A stretch of 11,534 nucleotides of DNA from Candidatus Iainarchaeum sp. (lineage in GTDB: Archaea; Iainarchaeota; Iainarchaeia; Iainarchaeales; JAZDFD01). Of this stretch, positions 2,355-9,292 are shown piece by piece (within the stretch, counting starts at the first letter, position 1; every line of letters begins with the position of its first letter). Under the pieces are notes generated by a model that was not told the origin of the DNA, made no database searches, and saw nothing but the letters and a program-made list of their open reading frames with translations. A program made the translations under genes and the position numbers. The DNA lies in the NCBI GenBank assembly GCA_043808155.1, contig JAZDFD010000002.1:1-11534 (forward strand), in the 5' to 3' direction.

Positions 2355-2364
2355 AAACTTTTAA
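2355..2364 (+). promoter_or_regulatory. TATA-like promoter element of box C/D sRNA copy 1
   Basis: AAACTTTTAA, with TTTTAA starting 35 nt before box C. The identical 10-mer lies at nearly the same distance before copy 2 although the flanks differ. Confidence 0.65.
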
Positions 2365-2387
2365 CTAATCAGTATCACACAAGGTAT

Positions 2388-2457
2388 TAGGCGATGAAGA
2401 AGTTAACACCTAATGATGTCTTCGGGCAGATGATTATACAACTCAACGCTGAGCCTA
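2388..2457 (+). ncRNA. archaeal box C/D guide sRNA, copy 1
   Basis: Terminal stem TAGGC/GCCTA; box C ATGAAGA 2394-2400; 12-nt guide AGTTAACACCTA; D' ATGA 2413-2416; TGTC-TTCG-GGCA hairpin; C' ATGATTA 2430-2436; 12-nt guide TACAACTCAACG; box D CTGA 2449-2452. Confidence 0.85.
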
Positions 2458-2458
2458 T

Positions 2459-2545
2459 ACACGATTTCGATCGCGTGTCCCGAGTTAATTACAGTGGCAT
2501 TGAGCAAAACGAAATGCCACGCGGAGTGCCCGTACGCAATCGGGC
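2459..2545. repeat. GC-rich hairpin cluster downstream of sRNA copy 1, partly repeated at 5376-5433
   Basis: ACACGAT-TTCG-ATCGCGT + GTCCCGAGTTA (2459-2487); GTGGCATT-11nt-AATGCCAC (2494-2520); GCCCG-8nt-CGGGC (2528-2545). Confidence 0.75.
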
Positions 2546-2563
2546 CAACTCAACGCTGAGCCT
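2546..2563 (+). repeat. exact 18-bp direct repeat of the sRNA 3' end (2439-2456)
   Basis: CAACTCAACGCTGAGCCT at 2439-2456 and 2546-2563; a one-mismatch copy lies at 5358-5375. Confidence 0.9.
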
Positions 2564-2597
2564 GTTTACAAGTTCAAAGTGAAATTAGAAGAAATAG

Positions 2598-4517
2598 CTA
2601 TTTTCTTAATAATTTGCTGTTCTGAAAATATTTAATTGAATTAAATTTATTCTTTATTTTTTGAATAACTTTTGGGAATGGTATAAATCCTTTTTTCTTC
2701 CACCGCAGGAAATAAAGTATTACTCCTGAAAGGAACATAGAAATACTAAACAGAATTATTGTAGTAAGCAATATTAATAGTAGAGCAAAGCCTTCAAAAC
2801 CAGTATCAGTAATGTTAAGTGGTGAAATTGCAGATCCCGTTATTAAAGATTGGGAATCAGAAGCAGTTACATTTATTGTTTTTGAAGCAGTTCCTTTGTT
2901 GTTATACTCATCGGTTGTTTCAAAGTTTAAAATCCATTCTCCTTCTGGAGAGGAATTGTCTGTTTGATAGTTAAGAATGTAAAATCCTTCTTCATTACTT
3001 TTTCCAGTCAGGTTAGAAAGCTCAATATTTTCAGATAAAATACTCAAAATAACTGGCGCTTCAGTAGGTGTTGAACTTCTTTTTACAGTGCCGCTAATTT
3101 CAATAGTTTCTCCCAGAGCATAACTATCCTTATCTGTTAAAACTTCCAAATTAAGCACGGGGTCTACAATTATTTTTGTATTTGCTCCTTGTTGTGTGAC
3201 TGCAACTTTTGCCTCAACTGTAAATGTGTGTTCTTCTGCTTTGATACCTGTACCAATAAAAAAACTATTTCCATAAATTGAATCTCCCTCTGCACTGTCA
3301 TTATGTAAACCATCATCATACAAATTCTCTGTTCCAAAAAATCCTGTTGCTCTTACCCAGTCAACATCAGATGCAGAAAGGACAGAAGAATCTGCAGTAA
3401 TTTCAACTTTAACAATTAGAATTTCGCCTCTTGGAAATCTTGCACTGTCTTCCGGGCTGTAAAAATTAAAAGAAATTATTGCTGGATTTGGGCAATCTGT
3501 TCTGCAAGTGGTAAAATTTTCATTTTTATTTTCTTCACACAATGAATTCCCGCAGCAGTTATCACCGCAATCTACTACTTCAGGATGTAACTCTGAAAGT
3601 TCACTGCAGCTGCTTGTATCAAAACGTAAACAATCATAAAAACAAAAAAGATTACCGCTTCTGTAACCCTGACTTATGCATGTTTCACCGCCAAAATCAG
3701 TGCCATCGCATAATTCATCTGAATCTTTAATACCGTTGCCGCAGTCAGTAGCCTGGCTTGTACAGTTACTTGTGTCGAAAACTGAGCAGTCGCCCTGGCA
3801 TGTTAAGGTTCCAACATCAAAACCTTGACTCGTGCATGTTTCTTCATCCAAATCTGTTCCGTCACATGTTTCTCCAGTTTCTTTTGTGTTGTTACCGCAG
3901 ACAGTACATCCGCTTGAGTCAAAAGCTGAACAATCCCATTGACATGATAAAGTTCCTGCTGTAAAACCCTGGATTATGCAGGTTTCACTATCTAAATCTG
4001 TACCATCACAAACTTCAGTTCCTTCTTTTATGTTATCGCCGCAAACAATACCTAGATTCCAACTGCAACCACTCTGAGCTTCGCATGTTCCTTGTATTAA
4101 ATAATCAGCACAATCTGTGCATGTTCCAGAGCAAGCTCCGGGGTTCCATGCACAGCCACCAGAAGTGCATAAACTTTCATTAGCATTATAAGTTGGGCAG
4201 GGACTAGGAGTGCCTAAACATTTTCCAGAGGACGCATTCCAAAAACACCCGTGGTTTTCGCAATCTATTGAAGTAAGGAACGTGGAACAAGAATTTGGAT
4301 CGCCTGTACAGGAGCTTGTAGTCCAACTGCAGTCTTCCTGAACTGCGCATGTCCCTTGTATTGGGAATGCTGAACAAGCAGTACAGGTTCCTTCGCAGGT
4401 TTCCACGCCAGCTAAACTTATAAATGCGCTTGTGGGGATGTCTCCTTCAAATATAAAAAAGCCCAGTAACAAAATAAAGAGTACTGAAAAAACCAATATT
4501 AAGTGCCTATTATTCAT
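2598..4517 (-). CDS. large Cys-rich membrane-anchored surface protein with choice-of-anchor-X-like and Ig/MG2-like domains
   Basis: N-terminal hydrophobic helix; four C.G...C...C...C.W repeats; three 'CG.......E.CDGTD...ETC..QG...G.L.C..DC..FD.S.C' repeats (3606-4043); 'LYDDGLHNDSAEGDSIY'; 'TDKDSYALGETIEISGTV'; C-terminal TM plus basic tail; GGAGA RBS. Confidence 0.8.
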   Translation of the reverse strand: MNNRHLILVFSVLFILLLGFFIFEGDIPTSAFISLAGVETCEGTCTACSAFPIQGTCAVQEDCSWTTSSCTGDPNSCSTFLTSIDCENHGCFWNASSGKCLGTPSPCPTYNANESLCTSGGCAWNPGACSGTCTDCADYLIQGTCEAQSGCSWNLGIVCGDNIKEGTEVCDGTDLDSETCIIQGFTAGTLSCQWDCSAFDSSGCTVCGNNTKETGETCDGTDLDEETCTSQGFDVGTLTCQGDCSVFDTSNCTSQATDCGNGIKDSDELCDGTDFGGETCISQGYRSGNLFCFYDCLRFDTSSCSELSELHPEVVDCGDNCCGNSLCEENKNENFTTCRTDCPNPAIISFNFYSPEDSARFPRGEILIVKVEITADSSVLSASDVDWVRATGFFGTENLYDDGLHNDSAEGDSIYGNSFFIGTGIKAEEHTFTVEAKVAVTQQGANTKIIVDPVLNLEVLTDKDSYALGETIEISGTVKRSSTPTEAPVILSILSENIELSNLTGKSNEEGFYILNYQTDNSSPEGEWILNFETTDEYNNKGTASKTINVTASDSQSLITGSAISPLNITDTGFEGFALLLILLTTIILFSISMFLSGVILYFLRWKKKGFIPFPKVIQKIKNKFNSIKYFQNSKLLRK

Positions 4518-4551
4518 TATATCTCCATAAAATTTAATAGAGCTAAACTAA

Positions 4552-4559
4552 TATAAAAA
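4552..4559 (-). promoter_or_regulatory. TATA box candidate for the 2598-4517 gene
   Basis: Minus strand reads AAGC-TTTTTATA, about 35 nt upstream of ATG 4517. Confidence 0.4.
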
Positions 4560-4666
4560 GCTTGATTCAATATAGGGTAGCGAAAAGTTAGAATGTTGGC
4601 TATGCAACAACTTGTAGGATTGTAAAAAGCAAGGCTATTTAATTTCTCTGGTATTTAATTTGTTTA

Positions 4667-4888
4667 ATGAACAGAACACAGCTTTTTGGAGTAGTGCTTG
4701 TAATAATTGGATTGCTTTTGCTCATAGTTTTTCCAATTATTGGAATCTTTGCAGGGGAGTTTTTAATCCCGCTTTCGGTCGTTGGAGGATGGATTATTGC
4801 ACTAATTGGAGCATTGATTGTAATTGTTTCACTAGTATTTGAAAGATTGAATGACATAAAAAAAGAAAAGTTTGACAAAAGTTTTTGA
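4667..4888 (+). CDS. small two-TM membrane protein (73 aa), probably co-transcribed with the YbjQ-family gene
   Basis: Two hydrophobic helices and a charged C-terminal tail; the stop codon overlaps the GAGGTGA RBS of the next gene. Confidence 0.7.
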   Translation: MNRTQLFGVVLVIIGLLLLIVFPIIGIFAGEFLIPLSVVGGWIIALIGALIVIVSLVFERLNDIKKEKFDKSF

Positions 4889-4898
4889 GGTGAAAAAA

Positions 4899-5213
4899 AT
4901 GATTATCGTGAACACGGATTTCATTCAAGGAAAAGAAATAGTTGAAACCCTGGGAATTGTAAGGGGAAACACTATCAGAGCAAAACATGTTGGAAAAGAT
5001 ATTGTAGCTGGCTTAAGACAGCTTGTTGGCGGCGAATTAAAAGAGTACACCGAAATGCTCACAGAGGCAAGAAAAGAAGCAATGCAAAGAATGGTTGAAG
5101 ATGCAAAAGCCCTTGGAGCAGACGGAATAATTAACGTAAGATACACAACCTCGCAAGTAATGGCTTCAGCAGCAGAAATACTTGTCTACGGAACAGCAGT
5201 AAAACTAAGATAA
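4899..5213 (+). CDS. YbjQ/UPF0145 family putative heavy-metal-binding protein
   Basis: Family signature 'LGIVRG...HVGKDIVAGLRQLVGGELKEYTEMLTEARKEAMQRM...GADGIINVR...YGTAV'. ATG 4899 follows RBS GAGGTGA at 4887-4893. Confidence 0.93.
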   Translation: MIIVNTDFIQGKEIVETLGIVRGNTIRAKHVGKDIVAGLRQLVGGELKEYTEMLTEARKEAMQRMVEDAKALGADGIINVRYTTSQVMASAAEILVYGTAVKLR

Positions 5214-5249
5214 AGACACAAACTAATTTTACCAAAAAACAGCACTAGC

Positions 5250-5259
5250 AAACTTTTAA
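5250..5259 (+). promoter_or_regulatory. TATA-like promoter element of box C/D sRNA copy 2
   Basis: AAACTTTTAA, with TTTTAA starting 36 nt before box C; same motif as 2355-2364. Confidence 0.65.
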
Positions 5260-5284
5260 ACTCATATCCAATCATCTTATTTTC

Positions 5285-5375
5285 AGGCAATGATGATGTT
5301 AACACCTACCGAATCTTTTTGGTCAAGCTTTTTGCTTGCAAAAAGGTTGTGACGAAACAACTCAACACTGAGCCT
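5285..5375 (+). ncRNA. archaeal box C/D guide sRNA, copy 2 (extended D'-C' hairpin)
   Basis: Terminal stem AGGC/GCCT; box C ATGATGA 5290-5296; guide TGTTAACACCTA; D' CCGA 5309-5312; 36-nt internal region with a hairpin; C' GTGACGA 5349-5355; guide AACAACTCAACA; box D CTGA 5368-5371. Confidence 0.85.
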
Positions 5376-5433
5376 ACACGGTTTCGACCGTGTGTCCCGA
5401 GTTATGTGTGGGTTTTCGTAAACTCAAACCCAC
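5376..5433. repeat. hairpin module downstream of sRNA copy 2
   Basis: Perfect ACACGGT-TTCG-ACCGTGT + GTCCCGAGTTA (5376-5404), then GTGGGTTT-10nt-AAACCCAC (5408-5433). Confidence 0.75.
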
Positions 5434-5443
5434 GATAATAAAA

Positions 5444-7615
5444 TCATTTTAATTTTATTCTTTTAAGAAGAAGAGAATTAGTTACAACTGAAACACTACT
5501 TAGTGCCATTGCTCCGCCTGCAATCATTGGTGACAGGAGAATTCCAAAAGGATAATATAAAAGTCCTGCTGCGATTGGGATGCCTAATGTGTTGTAGACA
5601 AGAGCCCAAAAAAGATTTTGTTTGATTTTGTTTATTGTTTTTTTGCCAAGAATGATTGCTGAAACAACATCCATTGGATTGCTTTTCATTAAAACTACGT
5701 TGCCTGCTTCTATTGCAATATCTGAACCTTGTGACATTGCAATTCCCAAATCTGCCTGTGCTAATGCAGGTGCATCATTAATACCATCGCCGACCATTGC
5801 AACAACTTTTCCTTCTTTTTGTAGTTTTTTAACATATTCTGATTTTTGGTTTGGGAGAACCTCAGCAAACACATTTTCAATTCCCAATGTTTTTGCTATT
5901 GCGTCTGCAGTTCTTTTATTATCTCCTGTAATCATCCAGACACCAATATTCATTTCTTTTAATTTAGAAACTGCATTTTTGCTTGTTTCTTTTATTGTGT
6001 CAGCAACTGCAATTCCGCCTAAAATTTTAGTTTTAGAGAAAACTAACATTACAGTTTTCCCTTCTGATTCTAATTTTGAGAGTTGGGAAGCGATACTGTC
6101 TAAATTGTGGAGTTCTTTTGCATAGTTTACACTCCCTAAGAAATATTCTTTAGATTTGATTTTGCCTTGAATTCCTTTTCCAGGAATTGCTTTGAAAGCA
6201 TCAACTTTTGAAAGCGAGAGTTTTTTTGATTCCGCACCTGAAACAATTGCATCTGCTAAAGGATGTTCTGAATTCTTTTCAAGTGAAGCTGAAATTGAAA
6301 GCAGTTCATTTTCTTTTATTTCTGAAACTGAAAATACATTTGTTAGTTTTGGTTTTCCGACTGTTAAAGTGCCAGTTTTATCAAAGATTACTGCGTTTAT
6401 TTTATGGCTCAATTCAAGTGCTTCTGCATTTTTTATTAAAATTCCATTCTCTGCTCCCTTTCCAGTACCAACCATTATTGCTGTGGGCGTAGCTAAGCCT
6501 AAAGCACAGGGACAGGCAATAACCAATACAGAGACTGCAGCAACTAATGCAAAAGCAAAGCCTTCAGGAAATACAAAAAGCCATGCTAAAAAAGTAAGCA
6601 GTGCAATAACAAGTATTGCTGGAACAAAAACAGAGCTGATTTTATCTGCAAATCTTTGAATATCTGCTTTTGAGCCCTGGGCTTCTTCAACAAGTTTTAT
6701 TATTTGTGCAAGAACTGTTTCAGTTCCGACTTTTGTTGCTCTGAATTTTATAAATCCCTGTTTGTTCATAGTGCCTGCAAAAACTTTGTCATTAATTTTC
6801 TTTTCAACTGCAATACTTTCTCCAGTAAGCATACTTTCATCAATTGAAGTGTTTCCTGAAATAATAAGTCCGTCTGTGGGAATTTGAGCACCAGGTTTTA
6901 CAATTATGATGTCATTTTCTCTAATTTCAGAAGCATTTATTGTAAGCTCTTTTCCGTTTCTTTCAACTAAAGCTGTCTTTGGTGAAAGATTCATTAATTT
7001 TCTTATTGCTTCACTTGTTCTGCCTTTTGCAACTGCCTCTAAATACTTACCAACTAGAACTAATGTAATAAGTATTGCTGCTGTTTCAAAATATTGTTCC
7101 TGTAAAAAACCAAGTAAAGCAACTACACTGTAGAAATACGCGGCACTTGTACCTAACGCAATTAAAGTATCCATTGACGCGCTTTTATTTCTTAACGCAC
7201 TCCATGCACCCTGATAAAATCTTCTTCCCGCAATGAATTGGACTGGTGTTGCGAGAATAAACATAATCCAGAGTCTGTAGGGAAAATCCATAATAAACAT
7301 TCCTAAAATAAAAACAGGGAGTGTTAATATTGCACTGAAAAGCAAGGTTTTTTTCAAAGAAGAAATTTCTCCTTCCCTGAGTTTTCTTTCTCTTTCCAAA
7401 TCAAATCCAATACTTGCTTTATAACCTAATTTAGTTATGATTTCAGTTATTTTTTCTAATGTGACTTTTTTCTCATCAAATTCAACAAAAGCTTTTCCAG
7501 CAGCAAAATTAACATTGCTTTTTGCTATCCCTTCAGTTTCTGAAAGTTTTTTCTGAACTAATGTAGAACACGATGCGCAGTGCATGCCTTCAATAATTAA
7601 TTCAGATTTTATCAT
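5444..7615 (-). CDS. copA: Cu(I)-translocating P1B-1 type ATPase
   Basis: N-terminal GMHCASC HMA domain; TGES, CPC, DKTGT, SEHPL and GDGINDAP motifs; YN and MALSS transmembrane signatures of P1B-1; AGGTGA RBS. Confidence 0.95.
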   Translation of the reverse strand: MIKSELIIEGMHCASCSTLVQKKLSETEGIAKSNVNFAAGKAFVEFDEKKVTLEKITEIITKLGYKASIGFDLERERKLREGEISSLKKTLLFSAILTLPVFILGMFIMDFPYRLWIMFILATPVQFIAGRRFYQGAWSALRNKSASMDTLIALGTSAAYFYSVVALLGFLQEQYFETAAILITLVLVGKYLEAVAKGRTSEAIRKLMNLSPKTALVERNGKELTINASEIRENDIIIVKPGAQIPTDGLIISGNTSIDESMLTGESIAVEKKINDKVFAGTMNKQGFIKFRATKVGTETVLAQIIKLVEEAQGSKADIQRFADKISSVFVPAILVIALLTFLAWLFVFPEGFAFALVAAVSVLVIACPCALGLATPTAIMVGTGKGAENGILIKNAEALELSHKINAVIFDKTGTLTVGKPKLTNVFSVSEIKENELLSISASLEKNSEHPLADAIVSGAESKKLSLSKVDAFKAIPGKGIQGKIKSKEYFLGSVNYAKELHNLDSIASQLSKLESEGKTVMLVFSKTKILGGIAVADTIKETSKNAVSKLKEMNIGVWMITGDNKRTADAIAKTLGIENVFAEVLPNQKSEYVKKLQKEGKVVAMVGDGINDAPALAQADLGIAMSQGSDIAIEAGNVVLMKSNPMDVVSAIILGKKTINKIKQNLFWALVYNTLGIPIAAGLLYYPFGILLSPMIAGGAMALSSVSVVTNSLLLKRIKLK

Positions 7616-7624
7616 ACGTTCACC

Positions 7625-7651
7625 TATTACAATTCACTTATTACAATTCAC
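7625..7651. repeat. 13-bp tandem repeat upstream of copA
   Basis: TATTACAATTCAC at 7625-7637 and 7639-7651. Confidence 0.8.
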
Positions 7652-7676
7652 GTAGTATAATGGACTATATTACTAA

Positions 7677-8123
7677 TCATATGAATTTATTTCTTCCTTT
7701 TTCCAGATCAGAGTTCTTTATGACAAGATTGTCTCCAATTACTGAACTTGGAAGATAACCTGGCCAGCATCCGCTACCTTTTTTGTTTTCAGTTCCAAGA
7801 CTGTCAATAGAGTACTTGTTACCGCAGTTATTACAGACCATAACATCTCCGCTTTGACTATAACCTTTTTTTGCACCATAACAAACATCACATGCATCAA
7901 ATGCAGTCTTAATACTGCCATCACTTGCTTTTACAGCAAAGAACCTTATTGTAGTGCCGCTTGATTCATATTCAAACCATTTTGCAGTTGTTGTTATTTC
8001 TGAGACAGGAATTGAAATTGAATCACTTTCTGCCTGCGTTGCTGTTACTAATCCAGTGGAATTATCTGAAACACAGCCTGATAAAATAAGAAATCCCAAA
8101 ATACACATTAAAATTTTTTTCAT
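7677..8123 (-). CDS. DUF2318 (FtrD-like Fe-S/Cys-rich) lipoprotein
   Basis: Lipobox-like LSGC; 'AFDACDVC...GY.Q.GD.MVCNNCG...GCWP..L' matches DUF2318; GGAGGA RBS. Confidence 0.85.
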   Translation of the reverse strand: MKKILMCILGFLILSGCVSDNSTGLVTATQAESDSISIPVSEITTTAKWFEYESSGTTIRFFAVKASDGSIKTAFDACDVCYGAKKGYSQSGDVMVCNNCGNKYSIDSLGTENKKGSGCWPGYLPSSVIGDNLVIKNSDLEKGRNKFI

Positions 8124-8137
8124 TTTTTATTCCTCCG

Positions 8138-9178
8138 TTATTTAGCACTGCAGCCGCATGTTGGTAAACCGCATGAACCTGTGCCACCACAGCTACCATC
8201 ACAGCTTGCAGATGAATTAACATTATCATTTGACTGCGCAAGACTTGTTGTTTCACGTACTTTATTTTCTGCTAATGATGCTTTCTCTGTTCGAGAATTT
8301 TCTGATTCAAAAGTTACTGTTGCAGGATATACATCAAAAACATCCAATGCAAGAATTTCGGTTTTAGAAGTTTGTGATGAATCAAATGCAACATCAAAAT
8401 AATTTGGACTTTTGTATCTCACGCCAGTAACGCCCTTAATTGATTTTAGTTCTCCGGAAATTAATGGTGCGTGCCCTGGGCAGGGAATATCCACTTGTAA
8501 TGTAAGCATTGAACCAGTAGTAGGTTCGGGTACCTGCAAATTCACGTTATCATTAGCTACATCTGTTAATACAACATTTCCAGTTATTGCAATTCCCGTA
8601 GTATTAGCAAATGAACCAGTGTCTAAATTTGCAAGCACTGGAAAGATCATGAAAAATAAAATCAGATTTATTCCAACTGTTGAACCATACATTGCGGTTA
8701 GATATTTTTTCTTTTTCTTTATTCCTTTTAATGAAAGCAAACCATTTTTTTTAAGATAGAATGCGGATGAAAGAGTTGCGAATCCAATTGAAAGTAAAAT
8801 AAGAATGTGAAAGAACCAAGGATTCATTAAAAGTGGTTTGAAAAATTCAACTGCTACTGTGACACCTAATACAGATGCAACAATGAAACCAATGCATCCA
8901 ATATGCGGGACTAAACCATAGATTATTCCTTCCCTGATTGTATTTGGTTTTAGGGAGGATTTAGAGGAGCCCTCGGGGGGGTATCCTAATCCCTTAAGCT
9001 CCTCTTCAATCTTTTCTTTAGAAATCTGATCAGAATCAAAACTCACTTGTACAGTGTCGTCTTCTAAACTTACTTTTGTTTCTTCAACACCTTCTAATTT
9101 TGAAAGTGCATCTTCAATTAGTTTTGCACAGCTTCCGCAGTGCATTCCTGTTACCTTGATTTTAAGCTCGGTTCTCAT
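8138..9178 (-). CDS. heavy-metal-associated (HMA) multi-domain membrane protein with Cys-rich tail
   Basis: Start moved to ATG 9178 (GGTGA RBS at 9183-9187). N-terminal GMHCGSC HMA; about 3 TM helices beginning 'PHIGC'; second HMA-like fold with CPGH; tail CDGSCGGTGSCGLPTCGC. Confidence 0.85.
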   Translation of the reverse strand: MRTELKIKVTGMHCGSCAKLIEDALSKLEGVEETKVSLEDDTVQVSFDSDQISKEKIEEELKGLGYPPEGSSKSSLKPNTIREGIIYGLVPHIGCIGFIVASVLGVTVAVEFFKPLLMNPWFFHILILLSIGFATLSSAFYLKKNGLLSLKGIKKKKKYLTAMYGSTVGINLILFFMIFPVLANLDTGSFANTTGIAITGNVVLTDVANDNVNLQVPEPTTGSMLTLQVDIPCPGHAPLISGELKSIKGVTGVRYKSPNYFDVAFDSSQTSKTEILALDVFDVYPATVTFESENSRTEKASLAENKVRETTSLAQSNDNVNSSASCDGSCGGTGSCGLPTCGCSAK

Positions 9179-9228
9179 TGAATCACCAGCACTAATGCAA
9201 CTGAAACCATTAATAGCGATTGCTGAAA

Positions 9229-9292
9229 CCGTCAATAATAACGGGGATTCAGTTATGAACCCGTCAATAATAACTACAATTCAGTTATGAGC
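9229..9292. promoter_or_regulatory. 32-bp tandem repeat in a divergent promoter, operator candidate
   Basis: CCGTCAATAATAACggggATTCAGTTATGAaC / CCGTCAATAATAACtacaATTCAGTTATGAgC (27/32 identical). Each unit contains an ATAAC-N9-GTTAT inverted repeat. Confidence 0.6.

Follow-up and report, generated by a model that had tools for sequence, protein, structure and literature searches.

Two paralogous box C/D sRNA genes of Candidatus Iainarchaeum sp. as predicted methylation guides for the A-loop of 23S rRNA

The window analyzed here—the entire contig C2 (JAZDFD010000002.1; 11,534 nt) of a Candidatus Iainarchaeum sp. genome (G000; assembly GCA_043808155.1)—contains two loci, A and B, 2.9 kb apart, that look like genes for one and the same box C/D guide small RNA (sRNA). 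The genome comprises 1.08 Mb in 35 contigs, has a G+C content of 35%, and is estimated to be 88% complete. The locus raises the question of what these RNAs would guide and why the gene is present twice. The explanation that fits best as a whole, and is held here with good confidence, is that A and B are two genes of one conserved double-guide box C/D sRNA family of DPANN archaea. An earlier note, made from the sequence alone, had proposed two paralogous box C/D guide sRNA genes with promoters of their own; both layouts and both TATA-like elements can be read from the sequence and consist of the following parts:

2355–2364, + strand: TATA/B recognition element (BRE)-like promoter element of sRNA A, AAACTTTTAA, 24 nt before AGGC
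2389–2456, + strand: box C/D sRNA copy A, 68 nt
2389–2392 and 2453–2456, + strand: terminal stem of copy A, AGGC and GCCT
2394–2400, + strand: box C of copy A, ATGAAGA
2401–2412, + strand: D′ guide of copy A, AGTTAACACCTA, 12 nt
2413–2416, + strand: box D′ of copy A, ATGA
2417–2429, + strand: 13-nt UUCG mini-hairpin of copy A
2430–2436, + strand: box C′ of copy A, ATGATTA
2437–2448, + strand: D guide of copy A, TACAACTCAACG, 12 nt
2449–2452, + strand: box D of copy A, CTGA
5250–5259, + strand: TATA/BRE-like promoter element of sRNA B, AAACTTTTAA, 25 nt before AGGC
5285–5375, + strand: box C/D sRNA copy B, 91 nt
5285–5288 and 5372–5375, + strand: terminal stem of copy B, AGGC and GCCT
5290–5296, + strand: box C of copy B, ATGATGA
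5297–5308, + strand: D′ guide of copy B, TGTTAACACCTA, 12 nt
5309–5312, + strand: box D′ of copy B, CCGA
5313–5348, + strand: internal hairpin of copy B, 36 nt
5349–5355, + strand: box C′ of copy B, GTGACGA
5356–5367, + strand: D guide of copy B, AACAACTCAACA, 12 nt
5368–5371, + strand: box D of copy B, CTGA

Both loci feature the order C–guide–D′–hairpin–C′–guide–D with spacers of exactly 12 nt and the AGGC/GCCT stem, just as described before, and the upstream element lies at a near-equal distance from both. The single nucleotide between AGGC and box C is a G in copy A and an A in copy B. The blocks common to A and B are 88%, 83%, and 90% identical as judged by a repeat search of the window (83–90% by BLAST), and the guides are identical at 11/12 and 10/12 positions. 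The divergence of boxes C, D′, and C′ and of the internal loop between the copies is also borne out, and all internal boxes—D′ AUGA and C′ AUGAUUA in A, D′ CCGA and C′ GUGACGA in B—keep their GA dinucleotides. Outside the functional blocks, A and B are unlike: the spacer between the TATA element and the RNA differs, and the internal loops are unrelated.

The family to which both loci belong is conserved in the order. A 17-letter word consisting of box C and the D′ guide, ATGAHGANGTTAACACC, occurs in 75 of the 196 genomes of the order, the reversed word in none of the 196. The compensated word ATGAHGANGTWAACCCC is present in 24 of the 196 genomes (reversed control, 0); 23 of these belong to families f7, f30, and f31, which have 0 matches to ATGAHGANGTTAACACC, and the remaining one, G097 (f27), carries both words. 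Among the matches listed, the named records with the full RNA or ATGAHGANGTTAACACC are labeled Candidatus Diapherotrites or Candidatus Iainarchaeum. A pattern scan of the whole collection yielded, among the matches listed, the full architecture at 3 of 119 loci; the others are mostly bacterial, and most of them are chance matches. From the loci returned by the word search, 30 full-length members of the family were parsed by a regular expression. The inner three pairs of the terminal stem are kept in 28, 30, and 30 of the 30 members and occur as G–C, A–T, T–A, and G–T. When the register is slid by +1, +2, or −1, the innermost scorable pair is left in only 0 or 1 of the 30 members; counts stay high for pair 2 at +1 (29/30) and for pair 3 at −1 (28/30) because the stem is GG/CC. 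Box C (consensus RUGAUGA) reads ATGATGA in 24 members, ATGAAGA in 3, and ATGACGA in 3, and box D (consensus CUGA) reads CTGA in 28 and CCGA in 2. Position 6 of box C′ and position 1 of box D′, which pair in the kink-turn, are G–C in 27/30 members and T–A in 2/30, namely in copy A and L080. A TATA-like word begins 33–35 nt before box C in 20 of the 30. The D′–C′ spacer ranges from 3 to 84 nt: a 9-nt mini-hairpin is present in 13 members, and inserts of 34–84 nt occur. Copy B has orthologs in G005, G018, G028, and G031 at 86–93% identity, with a 36-nt internal hairpin that is almost letter-for-letter the same.

The targets of both guides lie in 23S rRNA. The 23S rRNA of G000 (C26:84009–86983) was aligned to E. 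coli K-12 rrlB by MAFFT. The D′ guide of A forms 11 of 12 possible Watson–Crick pairs with large-subunit rRNA (LSU) positions 2591–2602, GAGGTGTTAACT, and the D′ guide of B forms 10. Guide position 5, the fifth nucleotide upstream of box D′, is opposite LSU 2595, the equivalent of U2552 in the A-loop (helix 92). The D guide forms 9 pairs, including one G–U, with AGTTGGGTTGAG, and its position 5 is opposite LSU 2624, the equivalent of G2581—the two targets are approximately 30 nt apart in one rRNA domain. Searched across the genome with at most one mismatch, the complement of the D guide gives scattered matches in coding regions only; the target is seen once G–U is allowed. In a shuffle test, just 9 of 1000 shuffled versions of the D′ guide of A pair as well as the guide itself. 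The earlier note had tied its reading to a complementary RNA target, and rRNA complements are found for both guides.

The comparative evidence for these targets appears much stronger than the shuffle test in one genome. In 12 sRNAs from 10 genomes having their own LSU segment, neither guide falls below 9 contiguous pairs across position 5. At the target of the D guide, guide position 10 is a C opposite rRNA G in 8/8 cases and a T opposite A in 4/4, that is, it covaries in 12/12. Three guide pyrimidines opposite GGG exchange C and T with retention of pairing. The A-loop occurs in three variants: GGTGTTAAC, which pairs with the guide GTTAACACC in G000 and others; GGGGTTAAC, which pairs with GTTAACCCC in G006, G030, and G047; and GGGGTTTAC, which pairs with GTAAACCCC in G029. 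Each variant is matched by a complementary guide in the same genome, which indicates that the guide follows its target, including a change of the modified base. G replaces U2552 in 3 of the 26 parsed LSU segments, all from families without ATGAHGANGTTAACACC. The A-loop nucleotide of 23S rRNA that corresponds to E. coli U2552 is hence a well-supported predicted target of the D′ guide. According to a passage in a review, a modification at U2552 and/or G2553 has always been found in the A-loops studied (PMC7994747).

In G000, the peptidyl-transferase ring region at about LSU 2490–2570 departs strongly from E. coli when the two sequences are aligned pairwise; for example, GGGGGTAATTGAGTGG of G000 is aligned to GGGGATAACAGGCTGA of E. 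coli, and GCTACATCGCCGTCGTCTC to GGCACCTCGATGTCGGCTC. The A-loop itself reads UGUUAA versus UGUUCG.

The genome encodes the proteins of the L7Ae–Nop5–fibrillarin guide architecture invoked in the earlier note: fibrillarin (269.5 bits), Nop5 (206.6 bits), and L7Ae (96.1 bits) all score above the Pfam cut-offs, and the Nop5 and fibrillarin genes are adjacent on contig C1. In the proposed mechanism, each RNA would be transcribed from its own TATA element and would form a terminal C/D kink-turn and an internal C′/D′ kink-turn closed by the hairpin. Each RNA would then assemble with L7Ae, Nop5, and fibrillarin into a ribonucleoprotein, in which the D′ guide on helix 92 would place a 2′-O-methyl group at LSU 2595, while the D guide would pair approximately 30 nt downstream and aim at LSU 2624.

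Several observations weigh against this interpretation. No Rfam family reaches its gathering score (thresholds 40–65) in the whole window or at either locus; the best scores are 17.2 bits at A (SNORD33, snoZ169) and 15.1 bits at B (snoR30). CD-box families dominate these weak matches: with locus-only input, 10 of the 12 subthreshold matches at A are to such families, as are 12 of 16 at locus B. The 10 at A are all on the + strand and cover whole models over approximately 2384–2458, and about half of those at B span the whole RNA. Both loci are thus C/D sRNA-like in their predicted working but stand outside every curated Rfam family. Families f11 (0/38) and f3 (0/22) are without either ATGAHGANGTTAACACC or ATGAHGANGTWAACCCC. 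The 12-nt spacing of the 30 parsed members was required by the regular expression and, hence, is independent evidence only for copies A and B of the window, where 12 nt is found four times. In the shuffle test in one genome, 106 of 1000 shuffles equal the D′ guide of B, and the D guides are not significant, with 231/1000 and 165/1000 shuffles reaching 9 pairs; for the target of the D guides, the case is made by conservation and covariation. A weak partial FtsJ-family match in G000 (25.8 bits) leaves room for a protein-only route to methylation of the U2552 equivalent. The sequencing runs listed as containing the stretch all give DNA contigs, with shares of at most 0.16, and none of them is an RNA run. 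In addition, boxes C (AUGAAGA), D′ (AUGA), and C′ (AUGAUUA) of copy A are nonconsensus, and a mobile insert lies directly at its 3′ end.

Among known systems, the archaeal box C/D sRNAs of Pyrococcus and Sulfolobus (Rfam sR44, sR49, sR39, sR3, and sR1) are alike in box order, 12-nt guides, the short terminal stem, a promoter of their own, predicted methylation opposite guide position 5, and two targets approximately 30 nt apart. The Rfam sR families give weak full-length matches, none of them at the gathering score. In contrast to the sR families, the guides described here specifically match the A-loop of this order, whose sequence is unusual, and the D′–C′ spacer is usually a 9-nt mini-hairpin—with inserts of 34–84 nt in some members—instead of the short kink-loop typical of archaeal sRNAs. 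The same universally important position in helix 92 is modified by different routes elsewhere. In yeast, snR52 guides Um2921, the equivalent of U2552. In E. coli, a protein enzyme methylates U2552, and its loss slows growth, as stated in a passage of the review (PMC7994747). Unlike the mark set by this enzyme, the one in G000, with only its weak partial FtsJ-family match, is predicted to be RNA-guided, and some families of the order carry G rather than U at the targeted position, with the guide following. No paper on C/D sRNAs of DPANN archaea (Diapherotrites/Iainarchaeota) was found in a narrow literature search.

Concerning the presence of two genes, at least two matches to ATGAHGANGTTAACACC are found in 15 of the 75 genomes. 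Pairs on the same contig occur in five genomes (G000, G017, G024, G027, and G108), all in direct orientation and 0.7–6.8 kb apart. The genes between paired copies are unrelated: Fic, a pyridoxal-phosphate (PLP) enzyme, and a GHMP kinase; ZnuA, an ABC-3 permease, and a U32 peptidase; and a transglutaminase. G018 has a 3.1-kb contig with the sRNA at both ends and a KaiC-like gene between. Of the two copies in G017 and in G024, only the downstream one is complete; the upstream one is a 5′ fragment. Duplications are also published for Pyrobaculum: passages of one study describe full-length C/D sRNA gene duplicates whose 3′ flanks are similar and whose 5′ flanks are unrelated (Pae sR113a/b, sR46a), an sR62 pseudogene approximately 2.5 kb away, and a MITE-like (miniature inverted-repeat transposable element) sRNA element in P. 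calidifontis (PMC6009581). As far as these passages go, the two systems share full-length duplicates, a pseudogene copy a few kilobases off, and a link of sRNA genes with small repeat elements. They differ in phylum, in their guides, which are unrelated, and in the frequency of extra matches across an order (15/75), and the repeat here is a hairpin element landing at the sRNA 3′ end with a long target duplication, not the sRNA itself. Extra copies are ordinary in the group, and the former view that redundant same-target guides are unusual is not supported.

Nor do the genes next to the sRNAs establish that the region is accessory:

2598–4517, − strand: 639-aa cysteine-rich protein gene between sRNA genes A and B, with a hydrophobic segment at the N terminus and a membrane anchor at the C terminus
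4667–4888, + strand: 73-aa small membrane protein gene, syntenic in G017 and G027 and partly in G108
4872–5213, + strand: YbjQ-family gene, 113 aa (Pfam PF01906, E 4e-39), a conserved neighbor upstream of copy B

The 73-aa gene and ybjQ are also found upstream of an sRNA copy in G017, G108, and G027, with a few small open reading frames (ORFs) intervening in G027, and ybjQ adjoins the sRNA in these three genomes at 81–93% identity (tblastn). The membrane-protein and ybjQ genes before B are thereby syntenic in four families; only the 639-aa surface-protein gene looks variable. It is absent from the corresponding interval of G017, and its match to an MG2-like domain is subthreshold. Within this ORF, a 70-nt direct repeat (4058–4127 and 4322–4391, 71% identity) reflects internal cysteine-rich repeats of the protein (CGxxxKExxExCDGTDLxxETC...).

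Copy A is probably still functional, in view of the retention of both guides and of the compensated internal kink-turn. Its odd C′ T6 and D′ A1 compensate each other and recur in L080, which argues for a working RNA, and its box C version, ATGAAGA, is the only one in several single-match genomes (G022, G133, G034, G003, and G068). The claim that both copies are under selection gains indirect support only, from the intact guides and the compensated C′6/D′1 of A; no closely related genome has both copies. The loci are judged to be genuine, independently promoted paralogs of a conserved, predicted A-loop methylation guide.

Profiles of the RNA halves, built from the 30 orthologs, were run against the 1.08-Mb genome. 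The 3′ half matches only A, B, and an 18-nt duplicate, and the 5′ half matches A, B, and two related 5′ pieces. The genome-wide check for more copies, proposed along with the first reading, yields a 5′ fragment at C12:1432–1455, a related RNA at C1:60283–60345, and the 18-nt 3′ duplicate. The fragment (− strand) retains the stem, box C, and GTTAATACCTA, is without a D′ box or 3′ half, and looks like a decayed extra copy. The third, C/D-like RNA (C1:60283–60345, + strand) is close to copy B in its 5′ part. Its D′ guide, GATTAACACCTCT, is followed by CTGA, which gives a 13-nt spacer and moves the pairing by one, so that position 5 would lie opposite LSU 2594, one nucleotide ahead of U2552. It has no clear 3′ half. 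This RNA is followed by a palindrome, TTATTACTCA...TGAGTAATA, and the truncated copy in G024 has a similar one behind it. The sRNA of family f31 (L233–L238) keeps the A-loop D′ guide and has a quite different D guide (TTGATAGGCGGG)—a guide replacement within the family.

The similarity between A and B extends beyond the RNAs into a hairpin (2458–2487 versus 5375–5404, 90% identical), which belongs to a two-hairpin unit of approximately 65 nt without coding capacity:

2439–2456, + strand: left-hand occurrence of an 18-nt direct repeat, CAACTCAACGCTGAGCCT, which forms the 3′ end of sRNA A
2457–2545, no strand assigned: 89-nt hairpin-rich insert, made up of an inverted partial unit (2460–2487) and then a full unit (2488–2544), by nhmmer and fold
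2546–2563, + strand: right-hand occurrence of CAACTCAACGCTGAGCCT, interpreted as the 3′ end of sRNA A after displacement or duplication rather than as a gene
5376–5445, − strand: one two-hairpin unit (nhmmer E 2.7e-15), which fills the space from the 3′ end of sRNA B to the stop codon of the P-type ATPase

The unit has 31 nhmmer matches at E<0.01 in G000, the 8 seeds included, mostly between genes or abutting tRNA ends. In 60 relatives, no two-hairpin unit was found by BLAST with a query holding the unit behind copy B. The 89-nt insert behind A is bracketed by a perfect repeat of the final 18 nt of the gene. An empty site exists for the unit behind B: of the contig pieces from four runs compared with the window, one, a metagenome contig of run X1, skips 5375–5445 and has CATTT instead. 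This contig is from a related strain, with 1 and 14 differences in its two parts. The direct repeats flanking three unit copies are 18, 17, and 15 nt long, whereas the longest at 1000 control sites is 12 nt. Among the 30 sRNA genes, 3 (A of the window and those in G017 and G102) carry a 14- to 18-nt copy of the 3′ end behind a hairpin insert of 61–89 nt. The inserts in G017 and G102 are 61- to 63-nt hairpins; that of G102 has 4 partial copies in its genome, and that of G017 has no other copy in G017. Scattered in many copies, noncoding, associated with target duplication, and missing from one site in a related strain, the unit in the 3′ flanks fits a small mobile hairpin repeat, MITE-like or similar to repetitive extragenic palindromes (REP-like). 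The shared 3′ flank is thus best taken as a lineage-specific mobile hairpin repeat and not as part of the RNA.

Two other accounts of the repeat were rejected. For retro-insertion, there is no RVT_1 (reverse transcriptase) match in the 88%-complete genome. As for a processing stem formed by leader and trailer, most units are single and lie between protein genes, 60 relatives lack the unit, and the empty site exists. Distinct from the two-hairpin unit, other G+C-rich leader modules stand before many tRNA genes of G000 (tRNA-Val(tac), Asp, Arg(gcg), and Pro(cgg)), with ...GTGCTACCGAAGGTGCAC...AAGCTCGAGGATTGAGCCTCG and ...CTCGCCGGGCGTTCGGC. At C20 ~3956–4040 (− strand), a tRNA 3′ end (GGTTCGAGTCCCTCCGGGTCCG) stands directly before a repeat unit. 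ARAGORN called no tRNA there; this may be an intron-containing or disrupted tRNA gene.

The internal hairpin of copy B (5313–5348, core TTTTTGGTCAAGCTTTTTGCTTGCAAAAAGG) may represent a second dispersed hairpin family. It is nearly identical in the orthologs from four other families, and similar sequences are also seen outside sRNAs, at L224 directly 3′ of a tRNA-Ala gene and at L229 in the intron position of a tRNA-like gene. Of four sites in relatives matched by BLAST, none has an Rfam match, and the hairpin is confirmed at three. Inserts of 76 and 84 nt occupy the corresponding sRNA position in G049 and G102.

As to the origin of the two genes, copy B would be the ancestral, syntenic copy, and copy A would be an older local duplicate in direct orientation that kept both guides and the compensated internal kink-turn. 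The mobile hairpin repeat would have inserted behind both genes and, at A, would have duplicated the last 18 nt of the gene. Against this stands the view that copy A is a redundant relic being lost, that only B works, and that the guides were kept by recent duplication or gene conversion instead of selection. This is unlikely. It is in line with the nonconsensus boxes C, D′, and C′ of A, the mobile insert abutting its 3′ end, and the truncated 5′ copies in G017, in G024, and at C12:1432–1455 of G000, which demonstrate that extra copies do decay. In addition, the hairpins behind A and B are 90% identical despite the polymorphic insert at B, which fits a recent exchange between the copies. However, A is of full length, with its promoter word, terminal stem, and both guides intact (11/12 and 10/12 identical to B); its C′6/D′1 change is compensatory and recurs in L080; ATGAAGA is the sole box C version in several single-match genomes; and A and B are dissimilar outside the functional blocks, in spacer and internal loops. 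A and B could also be the duplicated target of one insertion bracketing approximately 2.8 kb, with the sRNA gene as an insertion hot spot, but this is rather improbable. All five same-contig pairs are direct, 0.7–6.8 kb apart, and hold unrelated cargo genes; G017 and G024 combine an upstream 5′ fragment with a complete downstream copy; 3/30 genes have the 14- to 18-nt 3′-end copy behind a 61- to 89-nt hairpin insert; and at least 10 of 98 matches lie within 250 nt of a contig start. Yet ordinary tandem duplication accounts for direct pairs equally well, ybjQ would be cargo and is nevertheless a conserved upstream neighbor of the sRNA in four families, and the G017 insert is single-copy in its genome. 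Since A and B are only ~88% alike, with unrelated internal loops and promoter spacers, a single insertion event would have to be old.

It is similarly doubtful that the paralogs are footprints of an undescribed DPANN insertion process that is directed at the ends of structured-RNA genes and duplicates its target in part or in full. If true, this process would leave 14–18 nt duplicated for hairpin elements of 60–90 nt and a whole promoter and gene for kilobase segments; the process that puts hairpin inserts at tRNA genes would also create methylation-guide paralogs and shuffle neighboring genes. Far less likely is an integrase-mediated island that uses the sRNA gene as other islands use tRNA genes and leaves the copies as attL and attR. 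Direct repeats of an RNA gene bracketing variable genes and the displaced 3′ fragment behind copy A are in keeping with such an island, but the repeats are diverged and of different lengths between genomes, and no integrase or recombinase is present among the 20 ORFs scanned (10 of the window and 10 cargo ORFs from G018, G024, G027, and G108); an integrase-borne island was rejected on this ground. That the loci are chance box-like motifs or part of a coding frame hardly deserves consideration: a 62-aa ORF (2394–2582) overlaps locus A, and no Rfam match is above threshold, but order-wide conservation with zero matches in the reversed control, stem covariation, and guide–rRNA covariation already contradict this explanation. 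Two genes of one conserved guide family thus remain the preferred interpretation.

The rest of the window bears the following features. ARAGORN finds no tRNA in it. Around copy B (4872–9235) lies a metal-handling cluster: ybjQ, whose product is described as a putative binder of heavy metals; an HMA-domain P-type ATPase (5444–7615, − strand); an FtrD-like protein (7677–8123, − strand); and a 365-aa HMA-domain protein (8138–9235, − strand). The S-layer-domain ORF at 927–2354 (− strand) probably starts with the ATG at 2279 (MNKHLL..., signal-peptide-like) rather than at 2354, with TTTATAAATA and AGGAGTG just upstream of this ATG on the − strand. With the start at 2279, the promoters of this ORF and of sRNA A would be divergent and approximately 50 nt apart.

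For the annotation of these genomes, extra and truncated copies of the sRNA gene, and contig breaks there, are normal, and a conserved block behind the sRNA gene is to be taken as a mobile hairpin repeat outside the RNA. For the Diapherotrites/Iainarchaeota (DPANN), a well-supported, predicted methylation guide is added. Its guide–target covariation is unusually clean: the A-loop of the order departs from the near-universal sequence, and the guide tracks three variants of it. The guide is kept although the modified base changes from U to G, which argues that the ribose methyl at position 2552, rather than the base, is what would be conserved.

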